Positions 5,652-35,031 of a DNA stretch of 35,031 bases are shown in pieces. Below the pieces are notes generated by a model. It had not been told where the DNA came from. It ran no database searches and worked only from the letters and a program-made list of their open reading frames with translations. Made by a program: the position numbers and the translations under genes. The DNA is from a virus (taxonomy: Duplodnaviria; Heunggongvirae; Uroviricota; Caudoviricetes). The stretch's first letter is position 1, and each line of letters opens with the position of its first letter. The stretch lies in the IMG/VR virus record IMGVR_UViG_638341082_000010, one strand, 5' to 3'.

Positions 5652-8474
5652 ATGACGACAGAGTACATCAGGGACTGGCAACAACCGCGCCACGCAGTGG
5701 GGCGTGAAGGAACGGGGATCCCCGCACCTGAATCCGCGCTTTCCTCCTGGCTGGATGCCTACCGGGCAGAGAACGAGCGCCGACAGGAAAAGGCTGATGC
5801 GGCGTTCTCCGCCACGCCGCTGGGCAACCTGATTAATAAAAGCCTGGATGCACAGGAAAAACAGGACAAAACTATCACACTGGCAGGAGACGTCAGAAAA
5901 CAGGCACGCGGCGCGGTGGATGAAGCCATGGCCTCGCTGCGCCTGCTGCCGTCCTATCTGCGCGATCCGCTTATTCGCCACCTCTCCTTCCTGCGCAAAA
6001 AACAGGAAGCCGATCGCCGGAAAGGCAAAAAGAGCTGGCAGGCGGAACGCTATGCACGCGGAACCCTGCGCAAAATATTCGAACGTCTGGATCGCACTGA
6101 CGGACGCTGGCTGACACCGGGTTATCGCTCCCTTGCCGGACGCGAACGCCTGGACGATTTGCTTTACCTGCCGCAGCTCAACAAACACCAGATACAGACG
6201 CTGGCCACCATGACGGCGGCGATGTTCAGCAGCACCTTCGAAAAACTCTGCGATGGCTTTGGCGCGACCGATGGCGAACTGACCATGGATGTAACGCTGA
6301 AGACGTATCAGATGCTGGCCCGCATGGCGTTACACCTGCACATCATGCCTCCACATTATGACGCACTGACAACAGATAAAGACCGGAGGAACGAACCGGA
6401 CACGGAGCTGCTGCCGGGCGCAGTCCTTCGCCTGACCTGTGCGGAATGGTGGAAACGCAAACTGTGGCTGTTACGTTGCGAGTGGAGAGAAGAACAACTC
6501 CGCGCCGCCTGTCTGGTTTCCAGAAAAACATCGCCCTATCTGAGCCAGGGCGCATTAAGCGAGTTTCGCGCACAGCGCGAGAAAACACGCGATTTCCTGA
6601 AAAGTTTCATGCTGGAAAATGAAGACGGGTTCACGATTGATCTCGAGACGGTGTATTACGCGGGAGTAAGTAACCCGGTTCACCGTAAGGCAGAAATGAT
6701 GACCACCATGAAGGGGCTGGAACTTCTGGCCGAAGCCCGTGGCGACAGAGCGGTGTTTCTGACTGTCACCTGCCCGTCAAAATACCACGCAACAACGGAG
6801 AACGGTCATCCGAATCCCAAATGGAACGGGGCCACCATGCGTGACTCCAGCGATTACCTGGTTAACACGTTTTTTGCGGCGGTCCGCAAAAAACTGAACC
6901 GCGACGGTCTTCGCTGGTATGGCATCCGCACGGTGGAGCCTCACCATGACGGCACTGTGCACTGGCATATGATGGTCTTTGCACATCCGGACGAGATTGA
7001 AACCATCGTGTCCCACGTCTGCGATATTGCCATTCAGGAAGACCGCCACGAGCTGGGCGATGACATAACTCCGCGTTTTAAAGCGGAGTACGTCGACGGC
7101 TCAAAAGGCACGCCAACCAGCTACATCGCCACCTACATCGGAAAGAACCTGGACAGCCGCGCCGTGGATGGTATCGACCCGAAAACGGGCAAGCCACGCG
7201 TTGACCACGAAACCGGAAAATCAATGGCCGAGAGCGTGGAGCGCGCCATCGGCTGGGCGCGCCTTCACCGGGTCCGCCAGTTCCAGTTCTTTGGCATCCC
7301 CTCCCGTCAGGTGTGGCGTGAACTGCGCCGCCTTGCCAGCCAGATGGCACGCAACCCGGAAGGCCCGCAACAGCTGAAGGATGACGCAATGGATGCAGTG
7401 CTCGCTGCCGCTGATGCCGGGTGTTTTGCCTCCTACATTGAAAAACAGGGCGGCGTACTTGTTCCACGCAAAGACTACCTGATTCGCACCGCCTACGACC
7501 TCGCAGATGAGCTGAACGATTACGGCGAACAGAGCGTACAGATTTACGGGATCTGGTCACCACTCATCGGGGAGTCTTCCCGTGTGTGCACACATCCGGA
7601 TAACTGGAAGCTGGTAAGACGTAAACCGGAAGCGGAAGACAGCGCCCGCGAAAATGGTTTTGACCTTCAGGGCGGCCCTGCCGCCCCTTGGACTCGTGGC
7701 AATAACTGTCCCCGTGTACAGGAAACGGACAACAACGGGACAGAACAGCCGGAAGAACGGCCAGCACCGTGGCCGCAGCTCCCTGACGGCGTTGAAGTGA
7801 ACGAATGGATGCGCTCACTGAAACGGCACGAACGCCGGGCGCTGATGCGTTCGCTGCGTGACAAGCAGGCAAAAAACAGCAGTGATGAAATGCAGAACTG
7901 GACACAGAGCCGCAAACAGCCACGGCCTTTGCCTGATAACCACGAATTACTCGCTAAAGAATGGCGGGAATCTGCCGAATCTCTCGGCCTGCATATCGGT
8001 GAACAGCAGATGCAGCACCTGTTACGGGGCGGCAGCCTGTACGTTGACGGCAGCATCATTGCACCACAGGGATTTGAAATTGTACGCAAACCGGATACCC
8101 GCCCGGACAGCCGAATCACGCAGCTCTGGCAGCACCTGAGCCGTAATCACGGCGTAAGCAGCACGGAGATCCGCCATAACCCGGTCGCCAGCTATCTGGA
8201 ACAGCTGGGGGCATCAGACCCCGAAGCCGCCGCACGTCTGGCATCCACACTTCAGCAGGACCAGAACACCATGAAAACCCCCGTTACCGTGCTTTCTGAC
8301 ATGCTGCGCGCCATTCGTGACGCAGAGCACGCACAGAGAATCAGTGAAACAACTGAACGCGCCCGCCGCAAAGCAGACCTGCTGCGGGGTGGCCTGACCA
8401 GTAGAAACAAAAAACAGACAGAAACGGGATTCACAAATCCCGTAAATGAGCAAAAAACGCGCCGCGATATATGA
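5652..8474 (+). CDS. A: Rolling-circle replication initiation endonuclease (P2 gpA family) with a long C-terminal extension
   Basis: 940 aa; HUH-type motif VHWHMMVF and paired catalytic tyrosines YIATYIGKN in the central domain. Confidence 0.9.
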   Translation: MTTEYIRDWQQPRHAVGREGTGIPAPESALSSWLDAYRAENERRQEKADAAFSATPLGNLINKSLDAQEKQDKTITLAGDVRKQARGAVDEAMASLRLLPSYLRDPLIRHLSFLRKKQEADRRKGKKSWQAERYARGTLRKIFERLDRTDGRWLTPGYRSLAGRERLDDLLYLPQLNKHQIQTLATMTAAMFSSTFEKLCDGFGATDGELTMDVTLKTYQMLARMALHLHIMPPHYDALTTDKDRRNEPDTELLPGAVLRLTCAEWWKRKLWLLRCEWREEQLRAACLVSRKTSPYLSQGALSEFRAQREKTRDFLKSFMLENEDGFTIDLETVYYAGVSNPVHRKAEMMTTMKGLELLAEARGDRAVFLTVTCPSKYHATTENGHPNPKWNGATMRDSSDYLVNTFFAAVRKKLNRDGLRWYGIRTVEPHHDGTVHWHMMVFAHPDEIETIVSHVCDIAIQEDRHELGDDITPRFKAEYVDGSKGTPTSYIATYIGKNLDSRAVDGIDPKTGKPRVDHETGKSMAESVERAIGWARLHRVRQFQFFGIPSRQVWRELRRLASQMARNPEGPQQLKDDAMDAVLAAADAGCFASYIEKQGGVLVPRKDYLIRTAYDLADELNDYGEQSVQIYGIWSPLIGESSRVCTHPDNWKLVRRKPEAEDSARENGFDLQGGPAAPWTRGNNCPRVQETDNNGTEQPEERPAPWPQLPDGVEVNEWMRSLKRHERRALMRSLRDKQAKNSSDEMQNWTQSRKQPRPLPDNHELLAKEWRESAESLGLHIGEQQMQHLLRGGSLYVDGSIIAPQGFEIVRKPDTRPDSRITQLWQHLSRNHGVSSTEIRHNPVASYLEQLGASDPEAAARLASTLQQDQNTMKTPVTVLSDMLRAIRDAEHAQRISETTERARRKADLLRGGLTSRNKKQTETGFTNPVNEQKTRRDI

Positions 8475-8519
8475 AGCGCGCACAAAACAGGCGAAAACGG
8501 GATTTAAAAATCCCGTAAA
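8422..8519. repeat. Two copies of a 20-bp palindrome (ACGGGATT-N4-AATCCCGT and ACGGGATTT-AA-AAATCCCGT) inside a roughly 40-bp direct repeat
   Basis: Read from sequence; first copy lies in the last codons of A, second about 35 bp upstream of the parM start. Confidence 0.5.
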
Positions 8520-8550
8520 CGATTAATTAATCAACATAAGGAAAAGCGAC

Positions 8551-9510
8551 ATGAAAATTTGTATCGACGACGGCTCCACCAACATCAAGCTGGCATGGAC
8601 TGAGAACGGCGAACGCCGCAACGCCATCAGCCCGAACAGCTTCAAGTCGGAATGGTCTGCGCCGTTCGGTGGCACGCAGCCCGCGAACTACATGCTTGAT
8701 GGCGTGCGCTATGGTTTTGATCCGGTCAGCGATCGCTTTGTCCAGACGACCGACACGCAATACCAGTACAGCGATGTGAATGTAATCGCCATTCACCACG
8801 CGCTGGTCAAATCAGGCATCACACCACAGGAAGTGGATGTGGTTGTTACCCTGCCACTGAGCGAGTATTTCGACACAAACGCACAGCCGGACATGGCCAA
8901 CATCAACCGCAAAAAAGCGAACGTTATGCGCCCGGTGGAGTACCAGAACGGCGAAGCATTCACTATCCGTAACGTGCGGGTTATGCCTGAATCCATTCCG
9001 GCTGGCTTTAAAGCACTGGCTGACATGAGTCCGTTTGAATCCCTGCTGATTGTGGATTTAGGCGGAACCACGCTGGATGTGGCAAAGGTTCAGGGGCAAC
9101 TGGCAGGTATCAGCCAGGTGTTTTGCGATCCACACGTAGGCGTCTCCCTGATGGCCGGTGCCGTGCTGTCGGTGATGGCCGCTAACGGTATGCGTACCAG
9201 TCACCACATCGCCAATACCATTATCGAACATCGCCATGATGAAGCCTGGTTGCGCCAACACATCCACAATGACGCGCATTACGCCAGCCTGATGGCGGTT
9301 ATTCGTGAAAAGGAAGAAACACTGAAACAACGCGTGATCCGCGCGCTGGCGGGTTTTTCGGGTTACGGGCGGGTGATGGTTGTCGGTGGCGGGGCGGAGA
9401 TTGTGGCACCCGCTATCCGCGAAGCCTGCGGAGTTAATGCGACTTTCATCGCGGACGGGGTGCCACAGTTTGCTCTGGTTAATGGGCTGTACGCAATGGA
9501 CAAGGAGTAA
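8551..9510 (+). CDS. parM: Actin-like plasmid segregation ATPase ParM/StbA
   Basis: 319 aa; N-terminus MKICIDDGSTNIKLAW and internal VMPESIPAG, DLGGTTLD, VMVVGGGAE, LVNGLY match the R1 ParM/StbA pattern. Confidence 0.85.
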   Translation: MKICIDDGSTNIKLAWTENGERRNAISPNSFKSEWSAPFGGTQPANYMLDGVRYGFDPVSDRFVQTTDTQYQYSDVNVIAIHHALVKSGITPQEVDVVVTLPLSEYFDTNAQPDMANINRKKANVMRPVEYQNGEAFTIRNVRVMPESIPAGFKALADMSPFESLLIVDLGGTTLDVAKVQGQLAGISQVFCDPHVGVSLMAGAVLSVMAANGMRTSHHIANTIIEHRHDEAWLRQHIHNDAHYASLMAVIREKEETLKQRVIRALAGFSGYGRVMVVGGGAEIVAPAIREACGVNATFIADGVPQFALVNGLYAMDKE

Positions 9511-9514
9511 ACCA

Positions 9515-9829
9515 ATGACGACACCAACCAGACGGATAAGTTTCTATCTGAAGCCAGTCGCCGTCAATAGTGAACGGGAGGCGTGTAATTACCTCGACAG
9601 CCTGCCAGCCTCTGAACGCAGCCGCGCGCAACGCGCGGCCTTTCTGGCCGGGCTGGCACTCATAAAACGCGATCCTGCATTTGCCTATTGGTTGGCCGAA
9701 TGGCCGGAAGAAGGAGCTGCGCCAGCCAAGAATAATATTCAGAGTAAATATGCCAGCACACCTGCCACCGGAAGCAATCACAGCACTAGCGAGATAAGAA
9801 AGAACATTCAGTCATTTTTCCCAGAGTGA
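9515..9829 (+). CDS. parR: ParR/StbB-like centromere-binding adaptor
   Basis: 104 aa from ATG after an AAGGAG RBS; N-terminus RRISFYLKP...LDSLPASERSRAQRAAFLAGLAL resembles R1 ParR. Confidence 0.75.
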   Translation: MTTPTRRISFYLKPVAVNSEREACNYLDSLPASERSRAQRAAFLAGLALIKRDPAFAYWLAEWPEEGAAPAKNNIQSKYASTPATGSNHSTSEIRKNIQSFFPE

Positions 9830-19933: not shown

Positions 19934-20561
19934 GGCATTCACCCGCGTGGATGAAACCTTTGAGGCCATCCGCGACAGCCTGAATCAGCAGGCCATCAAT
20001 AACATCGCCAGAAAGCTGGCACAGGATTTACGCCGCGCCCAGCAGGCGCGTATCCGGTCACAGAAAGCGCCGGACGGGACCGCGTGGACACCACGCAGAC
20101 GCCGCGTAACCCGGATACAGGAGCGCATTCGCTTTATCTGGAATAACGAAGCACGCACGCTGAAAAACTGGCATCACGACACGGGGAAATACGGGCGAAC
20201 CATTACCGGGTGGGATGAGGATAAAAACAATATCCGCACGTTTTACCGGGATGACATCGACCGTTTTCTGGAAATACGCACCCGGCGCATCAACCAGGAC
20301 AGCACAAAGCGCGTCCCCATGTTCGTAAAACTGCGCACCGCCCGCTACCTGAAAGCCCGTGCAGATGCTTCCGGTGTGACGGTGGGTTACAGCGGCGTGT
20401 CCGCACGTATTGCCCGCGTTCATCAGTTCGGTGAGCGCGATCAGGTTGCGCCGGGCATTTTCACCGATTACCCGGTACGTGAGCTGCTGGGTATCAGCCA
20501 GGCAGATGAGCGCCTGATTTATAACACGATGCTGGGCCGGATTGCGGAGGCTGTACGGTGA
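19926..20561 (+). CDS. S: Tail completion/virion morphogenesis protein S
   Basis: 211 aa from ATG at 19926; conserved position. Confidence 0.7.
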   Translation: MDKAFTRVDETFEAIRDSLNQQAINNIARKLAQDLRRAQQARIRSQKAPDGTAWTPRRRRVTRIQERIRFIWNNEARTLKNWHHDTGKYGRTITGWDEDKNNIRTFYRDDIDRFLEIRTRRINQDSTKRVPMFVKLRTARYLKARADASGVTVGYSGVSARIARVHQFGERDQVAPGIFTDYPVRELLGISQADERLIYNTMLGRIAEAVR

Positions 20562-21139
20562 GCGCAGAACTCATGCGACTGCTGAGCAATATCATCCGCA
20601 CCGGGATCATCTCTGAAATTGATGAGAAGTCCTGGCGCGTGCGCGTTCGCAGCGGCGAACTGGAAACAGGATGGTTGCGCTGGAACACCACGCGCGCGGG
20701 AGCCTTCAATGTGTGGCTGCCGCCATCACCAGGCGAACAGGTGGTAATTGCCTGCATTGGCGGCAACCCGGAAACCGCCATGATAATTGGCAGCCTGTGG
20801 AGTGATGCCAGTCCGGCACCCGGCAAAAGCCTGAAAGAAATCGTGGTCAGCGCGCCGGATGGCGCGGTGTTCCGCTACGACGCGGACGCAGGCGCACTGA
20901 GCGCCAGCGGCATGAAAACGGCCACTTTACAGGCATCCGTCAGCGTGAAACTGGATACGCCCGTCGTGGAATGCACAAACCTTCTGAGAACGGCGACGCT
21001 TGACGTCACAAAAGGAGGAAAGATGAGCGGCAATATCACGCACAGCGGCGGCAACTTCACCTCAAACGGCATCACAGTGCATACGCATAAACACGGTGGC
21101 GTGAAAGGCGGCAGCGATTCGACAGGAGGCCCGCAGTGA
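20558..21139 (+). CDS. V: Baseplate spike/assembly protein V
   Basis: 193 aa; GTGA-coupled start. Confidence 0.85.
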   Translation: MSAELMRLLSNIIRTGIISEIDEKSWRVRVRSGELETGWLRWNTTRAGAFNVWLPPSPGEQVVIACIGGNPETAMIIGSLWSDASPAPGKSLKEIVVSAPDGAVFRYDADAGALSASGMKTATLQASVSVKLDTPVVECTNLLRTATLDVTKGGKMSGNITHSGGNFTSNGITVHTHKHGGVKGGSDSTGGPQ

Positions 21140-22911: not shown

Positions 22912-25044
22912 ATGAGTACCACAACACGAAAATTTAAAACCGTTATCACCGATACGGGTGCAAAAAAATTAGCTCAGGCAGCCGCGCCAGATGGTAAGCC
23001 TGTCCGCCTGACTCATATGGCCGTGGGCGACGGTGGCGGCACGTTGCCCACACCAGACAGTAAGCAGACCCGTCTGGTGCATGAGGTGTGGCGACATACT
23101 GTTAATCGCGTCATCCTGGACGCAACACATCAGAATCGCATTATTGCGGAGCTGGTTATTCCTCCAGAAACGGGCGGATTCTGGATCCGGGAAATTGGTG
23201 TGTTTGATGAGCACGGCGATTTAGTCGCGGTGGGCAATACTGCCGAAAGTTACAAGCCAGCCGTTGCCGAAGGGTCCGGTCGTACACAAACATTTCGCAC
23301 CATTCTGACCGTATCCAGCACTGCCACTGTGGCGCTTACCGTGGATAACACCATGGTGATGGCCACAGTGGATTACGTGGATAACAAACTGAAAGAGCAT
23401 GAACAGTCACGACGTCACCCGGATGCCTCGCTGACCGCAAAAGGCTTTGTTCAACTCAGTAGCGCCACTAACAGCGTGTCTGAAACACAAGCTGCAACGC
23501 CGAAAGCAGTAAAGGCCGCGTATGACCTTGCTAACGGGAAATATACTGCGCAGGATGCCAGCACAACGCGAAAAGGCCTTGTTCAGCTCAGTAGCGCCAC
23601 CAACAGCGATTCTGAAACGCTGGCGGCAACACCAAAGGCGGTAAAGGCAGCATATGACCTTGCTAACGGGAAATATACCGCACAGGACGCTACCACAGCG
23701 CGAAAAGGTCTTATCCAGCTCAGCAGTGCGACTAACAGCACTTCCGAGTCACTGGCGGCAACGCCAAAAGCCGTTAAGGCCGCGTATGAGCTGGCTAACG
23801 GGAAATACACCGCACAGGATGCAACGACAGCACAGAAAGGGATAGTTCAGCTTAGCAACGCGACCAACAGCACATCTGAAACGCTGGCGGCAACGCCAAA
23901 GGCGGTAAAGGCAGCATATGACCTTGCTAACGGGAAATATACCGCACAGGACGCTACCACAGCGCGAAAAGGTCTTGTCCAGCTCAGTAGTGCAACCAAC
24001 AGCACGTCTGAAACGCTTGCCGCGACCCCGAAAGCGGTTAAAGCTGCTAATGACAATGCAAACGGGCGTGTGCCCTCTGGACGTAAGGTTAATGGCAAAC
24101 CACTGACCAATGATGTCAATGTTACATCACAGGATATTTTTAACGGTCAGAGTATTAATATTGGTGCAAACCAGAATCTGGATAATTACAAAACGCCGGG
24201 GCTGTACCATCAACCCCTGAATGCCTATACAAGTGCAGCGCTGAAATACCCAGAGAATCTTGCCGGTACACTGGTTGTGCTTAAAAATGCCGGGATAACA
24301 CAGATTTACTATGTGTATAACACATCCAGAAGCTATACCCGCAGCCAGTACTCAACGGGTGACTGGACAGCATGGACGCCGCAGGATTCATTTCCTGTAG
24401 GTGCGGCGATTCCGTGGCCTTCTGATTCAGTGCCTACAGGCTATGCCGTTATGCAGGGGCAGACTTTTGATAAAACAACCTATCCCCTGCTTGCAGCAGC
24501 TTATCCCTCTGGTGTACTCCCCGATATGCGTGGCTGGACAATCAAGGGCAAACCCGCCAGTGGTCGGGACGTATTGTCTCTGGAACAGGATGGCATTAAA
24601 TCGCACACCCACAGCGCCAGCGCATCCAATACGGATTTGGGTACGAAAACCACATCTTCGTTTGATTACGGTACTAAATCAACGAATAACACAGGTGCAC
24701 ATACCCACAATGTATCTGGTACTGCAAATAGTGCTGGCGCACATACTCATACCGTGCCATTAAGGAGACCAAACAGTGGCGGTATGAATTTCGACTGGCT
24801 GGATGGTGCATCAAGTGGCACGGTGGTAGGGAATGGAACTGTGCCTTCTTCTGGCGCACATACCCACTCAGTATCAGGTACCGCTACAAGTGCTGGGGCA
24901 CATGCACACACTGTTGGTATTGGCGCTCATACGCACTCTGTTGCGATTGGTTCACATGGACATACCATCACCGTTAACGCTGCTGGTAACGCGGAAAACA
25001 CCGTTAAAAACATCGCATTTAATTATATTGTGAGGCTTGCATAA
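22912..25044 (+). CDS. H: Tail fibre protein H
   Basis: 710 aa; conserved P2-H-like N-terminus, about six tandem 42-aa repeats, His-rich C-terminal domain ending NYIVRLA. Confidence 0.85.
23434..24065 (+). repeat. About six tandem 126-bp coding repeats inside H
   Basis: Repeated peptide unit [43 protein letters not shown]; also produces spurious antisense ORFs. Confidence 0.8.
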
Positions 25045-25661
25045 TGGCATTCAGAATGAGTGAACAATCACGTACTGTAAAAATTTATAACCTGCTGGCC
25101 GGAACTAATGAGTTTATTGGTGAAGGTGACGCATATATTCCACCTCATACAGGGCTGCCAGCTAATTCTACAGATATCGCCCCACCGGAAATTCCTGCTG
25201 GCTTTGTGGTAGTTTTTAACAGTGAAAATGAATCGTGGAATATTGTTGAAGACCATCGTGGTAAAACGGTCTATGACGTGGCATCGGGGGACGCGTTGTT
25301 TATTTCTGAACCCGGACCGCTACCAGAGAATGTCACCTGGTTGTCGCCAGCAGGGGAATATCAGAAGTGGGACGGCGTATCCTGGGTGAAGGATGAGGAA
25401 GCAGAAAAACTGTTTCGGATACGGGAAGCGGAAGAGAAAAAGGCAAGGTTGATCCAGGAGGCAACAGATAACATCGCAATCCTGCAGGATGCAGTTAATC
25501 TTGAAATAGCAACAAACGAGGAAAATTCACAACTGGATTCCTGGAGAAAATACAGAGTATTAGTGAGTAGAATTGACACCAGTACAGCTCCGGATATCGT
25601 ATGGCCAGAGCTGATGAATCAGGGTTATGTGCGGGAGGACGAGCAGATAACTTCAGACTGA
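25044..25661 (+). CDS. G: Tail fibre assembly chaperone (gpG/Tfa-like)
   Basis: 205 aa directly after H. Confidence 0.75.
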
Positions 25662-26188
25662 AATTTAGTGATGAATGTTGAATCATCAGGAATATCATGC
25701 AATACCAATGCATGAGCACCTATTGTGACATTGTTTCCTATACGCACTTTGCCACCAAGAATGGTGGCATTACAACCAATGGTCACATTATGTCCTATAA
25801 CAATATCCATATCATTAAAATCACCACGTAGCCCAATAGTTACCCCCGGTTTTATTGAACAATTTTCACCGATTGTTACTTTGTGACCGATAACAACACT
25901 GTTGAGATAAGAAATATCAAAGCCTTTCCCTATATTTACAGTTAAAGGGACTGTTATATTATATTTATCAAGAATGAAACGTTCTATTTTCCCCGCAATC
26001 TTCCGACAGTATCCGCCTTTATCAAAAAGGTATTTGGCTATGCGCCACCAAAATAAATAACGAAGTCTTCTATGTTTTATTGCGCGAACAATTGCCTTTC
26101 GCCAGGAGAAAGGACGCTCGCTACCGATTACTTCATAGTGAATACAGTCTTTAAGTTCATTAATATTCATATCTCTATTATTCAGCAT
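25625..26188 (-). CDS. Hexapeptide-repeat (left-handed beta-helix) acetyltransferase; low-GC moron
   Basis: 187 aa; imperfect hexapeptide repeats ([45 protein letters not shown]); visibly AT-rich versus flanks. Confidence 0.75.
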
Positions 26189-26358
26189 AAGATAATCATG
26201 TGACCAATTATTGTAATAATTTTAATGGTATGTTTCTACTGGCTATCCAGCGTGTCTGATACCCAGTAACAAATCGTTAACACAGGTGCAATCAAATGGT
26301 GAGTGTTAAGACTGGCCACTTATTACCAGGTATGAGGGTATGAGTGGCCAGCATTAAA

Positions 26359-26853
26359 TCAGAACAGCCCTTTAACTGAACTGGCCGCGCTGTTAAGGGA
26401 TGATGTCACTTTATCTTTGAAGCCGGACAGCATATCGCTGAACGATGAGGATTGCAGGCGCTCCCGCAAATCCTCATCACAGCGTTCAAGGGTCAGTGAA
26501 AATTCTATCTTTTTCGCCTTACCGTAGCGATCAAACTCGGAACGGGTCGTATTCGTTTCGGTCAGGACATACATGCCGTAAATCTGCCCGACGCCATCAA
26601 TAAGAGGCCAGGGGCGTCCTGTATACGCCTGCGTGGTCAGCAGCGACAGCGACACTTCGCCACCTGTAATTTCAGGATAAAGCACACCAGAAAGAACGAT
26701 GCGATCATCACCTGCACCGATATACTGCCAGCTTGCTGAACGGTTAACGCGTTCATTTTTCACATGCCGCCAGCTTTTGTTTTGCTGTAACTGCTGATGC
26801 GGCAGCGTGCGCAGCTCAAAAACAAACATGCCGTAGATCATCATCATGGCCAT
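26359..26853 (-). CDS. U: Tail protein U
   Basis: 164 aa downstream of the tape measure gene. Confidence 0.8.
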   Translation of the reverse strand: MAMMMIYGMFVFELRTLPHQQLQQNKSWRHVKNERVNRSASWQYIGAGDDRIVLSGVLYPEITGGEVSLSLLTTQAYTGRPWPLIDGVGQIYGMYVLTETNTTRSEFDRYGKAKKIEFSLTLERCDEDLRERLQSSSFSDMLSGFKDKVTSSLNSAASSVKGLF

Positions 26854-33589: not shown

Positions 33590-33826
33590 ATGTGGAAAGG
33601 CCCCGGAAAACATTTCTGTTTAACCGAGGCCCTAACACTTCTTACCTTCGCAAGTAGAAGATTAGCGCCTCTCCTCTCAGGAGACAAGCGTTATGACGCA
33701 AATTCCGTTAAAAACCCTGTTACTTTGCATAACTGCGGTAGCGATAATCTGGATCCTCCACACATCACCGTGCGAGTTACGATTCAGGTTTGCTGGCACG
33801 GAAATTGCGGCATTCTTACTATGTAA
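33590..33826 (+). CDS. mok-like overlapping reading frame of a type I toxin locus
   Basis: 78-aa ORF that contains the hok-like ORF in another frame, as in hok/mok loci. Confidence 0.4.
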   Translation: MWKGPGKHFCLTEALTLLTFASRRLAPLLSGDKRYDANSVKNPVTLHNCGSDNLDPPHITVRVTIQVCWHGNCGILTM

Positions 33827-33833
33827 TAAGTAA
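33693..33833 (+). CDS. hok: Hok/Gef-family membrane toxin, 46 aa
   Basis: MTQIPLKTLLLCITAVAIIWILHTSPCELRFRFAGTEIAAFLLCNK: transmembrane helix then CE.R...G.E.AAF motif characteristic of Hok/Gef; AGGAG RBS. Confidence 0.65.
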   Translation: MTQIPLKTLLLCITAVAIIWILHTSPCELRFRFAGTEIAAFLLCNK

Positions 33834-33919
33834 GATAACCGCGACGGGGGAGTAATCCCCCGTCAATCGGTTGCTAAGGTTGGTCGAAACGGCACCCTAT
33901 CTCACAGACATGAACAACA

Positions 33920-33953
33920 AACCCGCAGCGTAAAAACTGCGGGTTTTCTTTTT
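33920..33953 (+). terminator. Intrinsic terminator (AACCCGCAG-N8-CTGCGGGTT then TTCTTTTT)
   Basis: 9-bp stem plus U-tract about 90 nt after the hok stop. Confidence 0.65.
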
Positions 33954-34000
33954 GCTGCCCTCACAAATGAGGGCACCATACATAAGCAATAGGCATAACA

Positions 34001-34035
34001 GATCGATGCAATAAATCCGATCGATAAAAACGATC
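34001..34035. promoter_or_regulatory. Cluster of three GATC sites (GATCGAT repeats) upstream of the com-like gene
   Basis: GATC at about 34001, 34019 and 34032, read from sequence. Confidence 0.55.
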
Positions 34036-34082
34036 GATTTGTTATCATATCGGCAGCAGTAACCACACAAGAGGTGCCGCAA

Positions 34083-34280
34083 ATGACGCAAAATGTACGA
34101 TGCAAAAATTGCAACAAACTACTTGCCCGCGCCTCATTTCACTACATTGAAATAAAATGTCCGCGCTGCAAAACACTTAACCAGATAACGAGAGCCATCG
34201 AGCACCCCACACACATGAGGAGTTATGACCGTGGGGATCGCAATCCAGCACCAACCAGCACATACACCGGAACACACTAA
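34083..34280 (+). CDS. com: Mu Com-like zinc-finger protein
   Basis: 65 aa from ATG with AGAGG RBS; RCKNCNKLL...HYIEIKCPRCK closely resembles Mu Com. Confidence 0.75.
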   Translation: MTQNVRCKNCNKLLARASFHYIEIKCPRCKTLNQITRAIEHPTHMRSYDRGDRNPAPTSTYTGTH

Positions 34281-35031
34281 GGTTTATCAGACTGACAATG
34301 CCACGCTCTGTCGTGGGAATGCGCTGGAAATATTGCCGCTGATTGAGCCAGAAAGTATTGATGCCTTAATCACTGACCCGCCTTACAGTTCAGGCGCGAC
34401 ACACAAGGCCGGACGCACCAACCAGGGCAGCCATGCAAAATATCTGAACGGCGAGAACCTTCACCGCTTTGATGGGTTCGCGGGTGAAAACATGGACGCC
34501 CGTTCGTGGGCTTACTGGACACAATTATGGATGGCACAGGCACACCGCGCAGTCAGGCCGGGCGGTTATGCCCTGGTATTTACTGACTGGCGACAACTAC
34601 CAGCTTTAACCGATGCGTTTCAGGCCAGTGGCTTTACATGGCGCGGCATCATTGCGTGGAACAAGGGGAGGGGGTCACGAACACCACATACCGGGTATTT
34701 CCGGCATCAGTGCGAATACATCGTCTGGGGCAGCAAAGGCCATTTAGATAAATCGCCTTCGGGACCGTTCGACGGCTGCATGACGTTCCCGGTTATCCCG
34801 TCAAAGAAAATGCACCCGACCGGAAAACCAGAAGAACTAATGGCGGAACTGGTCAGGACTGTGAATAGTGGCGGAACAGTCCTTGATCCTTTTATGGGGT
34901 CAGGGACAACGGGTGTGGCTGCACTGAAAGCAGGGCGAAAATTTATTGGTATAGAAACCAGCGATCATTATTTTGAGGTAGCAGCGCAGCGGCTTCGGGG
35001 GACTATTACCACAACCATTTCGGCTACATAA
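34225..35031 (+). CDS. DNA methyltransferase, beta-class amino-MTase (N6-adenine or N4-cytosine)
   Basis: 268 aa; DPPY catalytic motif near the N-terminus and FMGSGTT AdoMet motif near the C-terminus; start overlaps the com 3' end. Confidence 0.85.
   Translation: MTVGIAIQHQPAHTPEHTKVYQTDNATLCRGNALEILPLIEPESIDALITDPPYSSGATHKAGRTNQGSHAKYLNGENLHRFDGFAGENMDARSWAYWTQLWMAQAHRAVRPGGYALVFTDWRQLPALTDAFQASGFTWRGIIAWNKGRGSRTPHTGYFRHQCEYIVWGSKGHLDKSPSGPFDGCMTFPVIPSKKMHPTGKPEELMAELVRTVNSGGTVLDPFMGSGTTGVAALKAGRKFIGIETSDHYFEVAAQRLRGTITTTISAT

Follow-up and report, generated by a model that had tools for sequence, protein, structure and literature searches.

Modular composition and allelic variation of a P2-type tail fibre gene in a P88-type Escherichia coli prophage

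The tail fibre gene analysed here very probably specifies gpH, the trimeric side tail fibre of a P88-type prophage, assembled from modules that have been described before and varying by two routes, recombination between the repeat units of its shaft and exchange of its tip as a cassette. It lies in a 35,031-nucleotide stretch of viral DNA (IMG/VR record IMGVR_UViG_638341082_000010; the window, to which all positions refer), and the element that carries it is a P2-like, P88-type (Xuanwuvirus) prophage of E. coli. The gene is already known, being annotated in RefSeq, with all of its domains represented in Pfam and with a tip homologue of known crystal structure.

Fibre gene, shaft array and chaperone

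The fibre protein, of the P2 gpH type seen in Peduoviridae, has 710 residues. RefSeq holds the identical sequence (100%) for E. coli E700025 under the name "tail fiber protein", and in PHROGs it matches the tail fibre family phrog_295 (E 2.5e-282); in a search of NCBIfam, neither it nor the adjoining assembly chaperone, Tfa, gave a family match. Genes in the locus follow the order V-W-J-I-H-G of the P2 baseplate operon, as read from Pfam matches for gpV, gpJ, gpI, the fibre and Tfa and from the RefSeq annotation of an identical prophage. A preliminary description of this DNA had called the gene a tail fibre, an identification borne out by the P2 gene order, the RefSeq name and the PF12571 domain at the N-terminus. 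The interval that it gave, 23434-25044, ends correctly at the stop codon but starts at the second codon of repeat unit 1, the open reading frame beginning at 22912. The fibre gene and its neighbourhood comprise the following features.

22912-25044, plus strand: P2 gpH-type tail fibre gene, 710 aa (open reading frame list, RefSeq identity, phrog_295)
22927-23370, plus strand: N-terminal baseplate-attachment domain, aa 6-153 (Pfam PF12571 Phage_tail_fib, E 3e-54)
23431-24090, plus strand: shaft array of five PF03406 repeats of 44 aa/132 bp each (Tandem Repeats Finder, Pfam, unit table and identity matrices)
23431, 23563, 23695, 23827 and 23959: starts of repeat units 1-5 (aa 174-217, 218-261, 262-305, 306-349 and 350-393)
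23632-23712, plus strand: copy 1 of an 81-nt perfect direct repeat, beginning in the 3' part of unit 2 and ending in unit 3; the 3-unit allele has its junction here
23896-23976, plus strand: copy 2 of the same repeat, beginning in the 3' part of unit 4 and ending in unit 5
24157-24378, plus strand: tentative intermediate knob-like domain linking shaft and tip, aa ~416-489 (weak pyocin matches)
24382-25041, plus strand: receptor-binding tip, aa 491-710, homologous to the collar, needle and head of T4 gp37 (2XGF, E 3e-81)
24400-24543, plus strand: Collar domain, aa 497-544 (Pfam PF07484, E 3.8e-11)
24754-24855, plus strand: head segment, hypervariable, aa 615-648; presumed contact surface for the receptor (divergence from T4)
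25044-25661, plus strand: Tfa, the tail fibre assembly chaperone, in the P2 gpG position, 205 aa (Pfam PF02413 Caudo_TAP, E 1.6e-39)
24391-26449, no strand assigned: exchangeable block that runs from the tip through Tfa and a convergently oriented acetyltransferase gene into the 3' end of gpU (identity to phage 613R2)

The N-terminal domain would anchor the fibre onto the baseplate; a sequence search for solved structures with the N-terminal 173 residues gave no homologue. The shaft that follows would be formed by the five 44-residue units, whose number is expected to set its length. The preliminary description had counted six repeats of 42 residues and 126 bp, a figure that gives way to five units of 44 residues and 132 bp on three lines of evidence: Tandem Repeats Finder, applied to the fibre gene, returns a period of 132 bp with 4.6 copies (score 732), Pfam PF03406 (Phage_fiber_2), a model for tandem units of ~42 aa, recognises five stretches (E 1e-98; 323 bits, where the cut-off is 22), and the unit table agrees. 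Unit 5 keeps the consensus for only ~30 residues, to about position 24048. Nor are the units near-identical, as had been thought, since units 1-4 share only 74-89% of their DNA in pairwise comparison (77-89% at the protein level) and most pairs are 74-80% identical, with 15-18 synonymous codon differences. The description does hold for the 81-nt perfect direct repeat, which is the longest exact run at an offset of 264 in the array; Tandem Repeats Finder additionally reports a higher-order period of 264 bp with 87% matches. A literature search on the structure of the PF03406 unit found nothing decisive. Two minus-strand open reading frames within the repeats (23583-23810 and 23847-24119) mirror the repeat, are without gene support and were rejected as genes.

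The start codon of tfa overlaps the fibre stop codon. Sequence identity of its product is 80% with lambda Tfa and 29% with T4 gp38 (E 8e-20), and the C-terminus of the product matches Mu gpU (5YVQ_B, E 4e-10). This lambda-type chaperone would fold the tip encoded immediately upstream.

The receptor-binding tip and its HxH motifs

The C-terminal 220 residues of the fibre (aa 491-710) align with residues 26-242 of the 2XGF chain at 64% identity, and the similarity is unevenly distributed: 77% for aa 491-548 (the collar region), 69% for the ascending needle and 76% for the descending needle, with the last 30 residues almost identical to those of T4 gp37, against 9% for the head segment (aa 615-648 versus T4 933-964) that the 69-77% identical flanks enclose. 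In T4, the OmpC- and LPS-contact residues 938-955 fall within this segment (PMC5221442; PMC9659904). The tip is 65% identical to that of lambda Stf and 91% to that of phage 613R2, and with sequences clustered at 50% identity, 248 cluster representatives match it at E<=1e-30. Between shaft and tip, the knob-like domain weakly resembles two pyocin structures in sequence, the R1 fibre 6CL5 (E 0.005) and 6CT8 of R2 (E 0.12); with the construct offset of 6CL5 estimated, it may tentatively be equated with Knob2 of PMC6116203.

The last 220 residues contain 14 histidines, every one of them in an HxH pair, and the pairs correspond one-to-one with the seven of T4, as follows (all on the plus strand).

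24604-24612: motif 1, H565/H567, KSHTHS (T4 H883/H885)
24700-24708: motif 2, H597/H599, GAHTHNV (T4 H915/H917)
24742-24750: motif 3, H611/H613, GAHTHTV (T4 H929/H931)
24859-24867: motif 4, H650/H652, GAHTHSV (T4 H966/H968)
24901-24909: motif 5, H664/H666, GAHAHTV (T4 H980/H982)
24928-24936: motif 6, H673/H675, GAHTHSV (T4 H989/H991)
24955-24963: motif 7, H682/H684, GSHGHTI (T4 H998/H1000)

Six of these had been listed in the preliminary description, which claimed at least six, and all six are present; KSHTHS at H565 is the seventh. The resemblance to T4 histidine arrays that it noted proves to be homology, with the seven motifs in register. Such an array is not a product of composition, as 100,000 shuffles of the last 220 residues gave a mean of 0.83 HxH motifs and a maximum of five, none reaching seven. 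Seven is also the commonest count in the tip family (49 of 98 representatives).

PMC6957217, PMC6116203 and PMC11705849 describe seven iron ions held by the HxH motifs of the T4 tip. H929 and H931 bind iron there, and substitution of either by alanine abolishes plaque formation (PMC6957217). In crystals of T4 gp12, zinc occupied the HxH site (PMC6116203). By homology, we infer that the window fibre forms trimers, binds metal, depends on its chaperone and contacts the receptor through its head. Each chain of the tip would then run up a thin needle, form the small receptor-touching head and return down, and at each of the seven HxH motifs the three chains would together enclose one axial metal ion (Fe2+ in T4), stapling the needle. 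An AlphaFold2 model of the tip as a monomer (aa 480-710, 13-sequence alignment) was unusable (mean pLDDT 30, pTM 0.16), as is to be expected when an obligate, interwoven trimer is folded as a single chain.

Unit-number alleles, mosaic blocks and alternative readings

Fibre proteins of 710, 666, 622 and 578 residues, containing five, four, three and two shaft units, occur among close relatives. The preliminary description had proposed that the repeats are a substrate for copy-number change, and the number does vary, from two to five. In a breakpoint-aware comparison, the four alleles differ by 3-4 SNPs elsewhere in the gene and are otherwise 99.8% identical; their N- and C-terminal parts are near-identical, and tip, Tfa and flanks are common to all of them. 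BLAST identities of 92-98% for the shorter alleles are misleading because repeat units cross-align and divergent upstream genes are included. Four distinct junctions are observed, located in exact in-register runs of 81, 26, 17 and 11 nt, in each case the longest shared, as expected under unequal homologous recombination. The longest of them marks the 264-bp deletion of L009 and L010, with its junction at 23632-23713/23896-23977. Because this 3-unit junction falls within the perfect repeat, collapse during short-read assembly is conceivable; a protein of 3-unit length (P0078, 622 aa, paired with the 3-unit allele by length alone) is encoded on a 5.1-Mb contig, which counts against it. Among complete genomes, the 2133-bp allele is present in 15 and the 2001-bp allele in 16, and the 2-unit allele occurs in two draft or Logan contigs only. 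Variation by this route would proceed through unequal homologous recombination between units in register, so that whole 132-bp units are gained or lost and the frame is kept.

Larger mosaic blocks are superimposed on these changes. The block at 24391-26449, which begins at the collar, is 95.6% identical to the DNA of phage vB_EcoM-613R2 over 2059 nt, and upstream of it the 948-residue 613R2 fibre has only scattered similarity, in repeats. Similarity to P88 is ~94% over nucleotides 1-869 of the gene and ends inside unit 3, and DNA similarity to lambda and Chuche stops at ~24680 and restarts at ~24907. The earlier suggestion that the gene may be recombinogenic is substantiated by these mosaic breakpoints, some of which fall within the repeat array and others where the collar begins and on both sides of the head segment. 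A second route of variation would be the swapping of the tip as a cassette at conserved flanks, namely the collar start and the HxH-bearing segments of the needle, which would alter the receptor-contact head. Switching by an invertible segment of the Mu G, P1 C or P88 type was considered and rejected, a search of the locus having found no invertase, second tip or flanking inverted repeats.

The unit-number differences, although real, could be neutral by-products of recombination that leave adsorption and host range unaffected, a reading that we consider rather less likely than not. It accommodates the coexistence of alleles with two to five units on one tip, chaperone and flanking sequence, as well as the way in which junction sites track the length of shared exact sequence, as they would in a purely mechanical process. 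It sits less easily with the fact that all observed changes are in frame and remove whole units, and with the purifying selection on the units indicated by their mostly synonymous differences. This selection implies that the shaft matters; shaft length is a separate question. That the array is instead a programmed contingency locus, switching rapidly by slippage or site-specific recombination to phase-vary the fibre, appears highly improbable. The array is in frame, lies in a host-range gene and shows four independent junctions among near-identical alleles, as such a locus might, but units of 132 bp and mostly 74-80% identity are unlike short, perfect, slipping repeats, and the junctions fall in homology tracts of 11-81 nt. 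The inversion apparatus is likewise missing here, whereas P88 has an invertase cassette at this place, and the 5-unit allele is at least 99.8% identical in fifteen complete genomes, which indicates stability.

Two further readings concern the tip. The HxH motifs might be retained mainly as DNA recombination sites, or coordinate some other metal in place of iron, and be structurally dispensable. "His boxes" of this kind reportedly drive adhesin swapping in T-even phages, according to Tetart and colleagues in the late 1990s. In the window, the lambda and Chuche breakpoints adjoin HxH-encoding segments, two of the HxH pairs are specified by an internal direct repeat of 62 nt, and the zinc in gp12 could be taken in the same sense. 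Yet all 14 histidines are conserved as protein across T4, lambda, 613R2 and the window fibre while their codons and adjacent residues vary, and the loss of plaque formation in the T4 alanine mutants argues against dispensability; the reading is improbable as stated, and recombinational and structural roles are not mutually exclusive. There is also very little to recommend the proposal that the fibre does not itself bind the receptor and carries a separate terminal adhesin, as T2, T6 and S16 do with gp38. Tip relatives occur in T-even phages, some of them with gp38 adhesins, but the downstream protein has the Caudo_TAP domain, the high identity to lambda Tfa and a non-adhesin architecture. In addition, the fibre has a full head segment and a T4-type ending (a stretch of 15 residues), and the open reading frame list contains no candidate gene between those for the fibre and Tfa.

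Relation to known fibres and significance

Among characterised systems, T4 gp37 (2XGF) resembles the window fibre along the entire last 220 residues, including the collar, both needle strands and the seven HxH pairs. The two differ in their unrelated heads, in the protein that bears the tip (the 1026-residue gp37 in T4, a 710-residue P2-type fibre here) and in the chaperone, which in T4 is the distant gp38 rather than a lambda-Tfa-like protein. Lambda Stf (orf-401/orf-314) with Tfa is similar in tip, in chaperone, in stf-tfa order and in the PF03406-like repeats upstream, but lambda has eight HxH motifs, a longer and unrelated head, a different N-terminal part and a siphovirus tail. The PhiNP ORF6 family (PMC9659904) likewise combines a conserved tip of ~215 residues with a divergent specificity segment equivalent to T4 932-965; its head sequence differs from that of the window, and the PhiNP receptor is glucose II of the LPS core. 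In enteric phages, tips of the PhiNP type are borne by fibres whose lengths vary widely (Magaziner & Salmond 2022, PMC9659904), a picture with which our representative search of tip homologues agrees.

P88 gp39 and P2 gpH share with the window the prophage type and the gene order, and DNA identity to P88 is ~94% in the N-terminal domain and the first repeats. The host range of P88 has been shown experimentally to be set by the fibre C-terminus (PMC5285337). P88, however, combines a P2-type tip with a DNA invertase, a second tip that is invertible and a second Tfa, whereas the window has a single fixed tip of the T4/lambda type, a lambda-type Tfa and an acetyltransferase gene. Mu gpS/gpU (5YVQ, 8JU3) is similar in that a single PF03406-type unit is present in the solved gpS (E 2.5e-09 and 5.7e-10) and gpU resembles the C-terminus of Tfa; it differs in having one unit instead of five, an unrelated tip that lacks the HxH needle, and the invertible G segment.

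Every part of the locus comes from a described family, and the locus raises no new biological question. A more ambitious reading, which we regard as unlikely, would combine two proposals: that the polymorphism of two to five units is an adaptive adjustment of reach to the thickness of O-antigen or capsule, and that tip, Tfa and the hexapeptide acetyltransferase form one mobile cassette. If the cassette proposal were true, receptor specificity would be coupled to a lysogen-expressed enzyme that modifies the receptor or a nearby surface sugar, leading to superinfection exclusion. As it stands, the locus has modest practical value as a clear case from nature of two routes by which a host-range gene changes in a temperate phage, the first seen in the in-frame gain and loss of whole units at four independent junctions among near-identical alleles and the second in the T4/lambda-type tip and chaperone cassette. 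The natural junctions mark where fibres tolerate shortening and tip swapping, information that is useful for engineering the host range of phages and tailocins.

Gene identity and setting

The repeats and histidine-rich tip of the preliminary description lie within a single tail fibre ORF preceded by P2 gpV, gpW, gpJ and gpI. Of the named phages, P88 (Xuanwuvirus) has the nearest backbone and is ~94% identical to the window across gene nt 1-869; given these P2-type neighbours and the P88 match, the ORF is gene H in a prophage of P88 type. E. coli E700025 has a chromosomal gene, annotated by RefSeq as "tail fiber protein", that is 100% identical over its whole length and lies within a complete P2-like prophage adjoining raiA/bamD. 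Every part of the fibre comes from a family already described, and RefSeq lists the identical protein, so the fibre itself is not new. The features first described are real and were correctly interpreted, with errors in repeat count, repeat identity and one missed HxH motif.

Features of the fibre gene and its chaperone
22912-25044 (+): tail fibre ORF, 710 aa, containing the whole region first described
aa 6-153: N-terminal Phage_tail_fib domain (Pfam PF12571, E 3e-54)
aa 174-217, 218-261, 262-305, 306-349 and 350-393: repeat units 1-5, five Phage_fiber_2 repeats (Pfam PF03406, E 1e-98)
aa 497-544: Collar domain (Pfam PF07484)
within the fibre: short Phage_fiber motif (Pfam PF03335)
25044-25661: Caudo_TAP tail fibre assembly protein (Tfa), directly downstream

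Shaft repeats and their variation in number

The shaft holds five units of 44 aa rather than the six of 42 aa originally counted; the PF03406 model itself is 42 positions long, against the 44-aa unit. Tandem Repeats Finder gives a 132-bp period (4.6 copies, score 732) and a higher-order period of 264 bp with 87% matches. Unit 5 keeps the consensus for ~30 residues before merging into the next domain. To call the units near-identical was an overstatement: pairwise identity among units 1-4 is 74-89% at the DNA level and 77-89% at the protein level, and most unit pairs differ at 15-18 synonymous codons, so the duplications are old and purifying selection acts on the unit peptide. Units 2 and 4 depart from this pattern in that their ends share an 81-nt perfect direct repeat (23632-23712 / 23896-23976). 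The solved Mu fibre gpS (5YVQ, 8JU3) has one PF03406 unit. Two minus-strand ORFs inside the array, 23583-23810 (75 aa) and 23847-24119 (90 aa), have repetitive translations and were rejected as genes; they are repeat by-products.

The repeats had been proposed as a substrate for number variation, and alleles of two to five units do occur on a nearly identical gene. Among the best 120 database relatives, length classes are spaced by exactly 44 aa: 710, 666, 622 and 578 aa correspond to 5, 4, 3 and 2 units, and a second series with a different tip runs 696, 652 and 608 aa. Representatives with 4, 3 and 2 units match the window protein exactly over the C-terminal 331 residues and differ from it at two positions in the N-terminal 173. 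In a breakpoint-aware, scripted comparison of the DNA, each shorter allele differs from the window by just 3-4 SNPs over the remaining gene, and the deletion junctions are all in register, within the longest exact matches between the participating units.

Deletion junctions in shorter alleles
264-bp loss: in the 81-nt perfect repeat
396-bp loss: in a 26-nt run, 23521-23547 / 23917-23943
132-bp loss: in a 17-nt run, 23752-23769 / 23884-23901
second, different 132-bp loss: in an 11-nt run, 23863-23874 / 23995-24006

These four independent events in one genetic background bear the signature of unequal homologous recombination. An assembly artefact of draft genomes does not account for the polymorphism, because complete E. 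coli genomes carry both a 2133-bp allele (15 genomes) and a 2001-bp allele (16); the 2-unit allele comes from two draft or Logan contigs only.

A T4-type tip with seven HxH motifs

The six HxH strings quoted earlier are all present, and a seventh, KSHTHS at H565, had been missed. The C-terminal 220 residues contain 14 histidines, every one in an HxH pair; in 100,000 shuffles seven motifs were never reached (mean 0.83 motifs, maximum 5). In sequence this region matches the crystallised T4 gp37 tip (2XGF, E 3e-81), and the 14 histidines map one-to-one onto T4 H883/885, 915/917, 929/931, 966/968, 980/982, 989/991 and 998/1000. In a multiple alignment with T4 gp37, lambda Stf orf-314, phage vB_EcoM-613R2 (613R2 below) and phage Chuche, conservation extends to the collar, the two needle strands and the C-terminal ...[15 protein letters not shown]. 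"Reminiscent" of T4 was thus an understatement, the tip being a true homologue. The T4 needle holds seven iron ions along its length, each coordinated octahedrally by the HxH motif that all three chains contribute; residues H929 and H931 are both essential (PMC6957217; PMC6116203; PMC11705849). We infer iron binding and trimer formation for the present tip; its AlphaFold2 monomer model has a mean pLDDT of 30.

Identity to T4 is 77% in the collar region (aa 491-548); the ascending and descending needle strands have 69% and 76%, respectively, and aa 615-648 have only 9% to T4 933-964. In T4, this head segment holds the OmpC- and LPS-contacting residues (PMC5221442), and it is the "receptor specificity domain" that Magaziner and Salmond described for the T4/lambda receptor-binding protein family (PMC9659904). 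With clustering at 50% identity, the tip family numbers 248 representatives at E<=1e-30 (1899 at E<=1e-3) and forms the C-terminus of proteins of 214 to 1599 aa. HxH counts range from 4 to 10 and most often equal seven (49 of 98 scorable representatives). Between shaft and tip, residues ~416-489 weakly match the R1 pyocin fibre 6CL5 (E 0.005) and may tentatively be assigned, via an estimated construct offset, to its Knob2 domain (PMC6116203).

The baseplate spike gpV (20558-21139, +) carries HTHKH at its C-terminal end (21080-21094), inside the GpV Apex motif PF18946, matching the kind of HxH iron site that has been described at the tip of the P2 gpV spike (PMC6116203). With the fibre tip included, two different trimeric proteins of this prophage's tail would thus bear HxH metal sites.

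Mosaic boundaries and linked accessory genes

Similarity to P88 ends at gene nt 869, within unit 3; P88 has a P2-type tip at this place, with an invertible alternative tip and Tfa plus a DNA invertase. The P88 cassette (locus L008, 6799-9503), compared here with window 25044-26200, comprises Tfa, Tfa' and an alternative fibre C-terminus, the latter two inverted, and the invertase; the window instead has one T4/lambda-type tip, a Tfa of lambda type and an acetyltransferase gene. The window locus has no P88-like P2-type tip, invertible alternative tip/Tfa or invertase, and no inverted repeats. A second boundary opens a block, from nt 24391 (the first collar residues) to 26449, that is 95.6% identical to 613R2 and spans the tip, Tfa, the convergent hexapeptide acetyltransferase gene and the gpU end; the 948-aa fibre of 613R2 differs outside it. 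At the third, DNA similarity to lambda and Chuche ends at ~24680 and restarts at ~24907, with the distal needle and head between. All three are known exchange points of the T4/lambda tip family, and "His box" recombination is an old idea for T-even adhesins. Tfa shares 80% identity with lambda Tfa and 29% with T4 gp38, and is similar to Mu gpU at its C-terminus.

The tail module (gpU, tape measure, E', E, tube, sheath; 26359-~31934, -) lies on the strand opposite to the baseplate/fibre operon; in P2 the tail module, baseplate and fibre genes are all co-directional. P88, like the window, has a minus-strand tail protein gene directly after the fibre cassette, so the opposite orientation appears normal for Xuanwuvirus. 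Elsewhere (~8364-9639 and ~33693-35031, coordinates derived from the annotation of locus L001, offset +2911) there are ParM and plasmid-partition-like genes and, at the right end of the prophage, a hok/gef toxin gene and a Mu com/mom-like Com-regulator/DNA methyltransferase pair.

In Chuche (locus L004, 4827-5696), the fibre gene and Tfa are separated by a gene for a 289-aa protein with a macro domain (PF01661, E 4e-18), and comparable "tail fiber | macro domain" pairs occur in SEN4 and O55/O157 prophages; this is another accessory gene linked to the T4/lambda-type tip family. The window acetyltransferase gene (187 aa, hexapeptide-repeat; 25625-26188, -) is convergent with Tfa, overlapping its 3' end by 37 nt. 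Although RefSeq names the product "serine acetyltransferase", its scores for EpsC, CysE and WcaB all fall far under the family cut-offs; the protein belongs to phrog_2154, of unknown function. What is mildly new here is only the 2-5 unit polymorphism with its mapped junctions and the linkage of tip and Tfa to this acetyltransferase gene. The acetyltransferase gene accompanies tip and Tfa in 613R2, occupies the position of the Z/fun accessory gene in P2, and may be a lysogenic-conversion or receptor-modifying gene.
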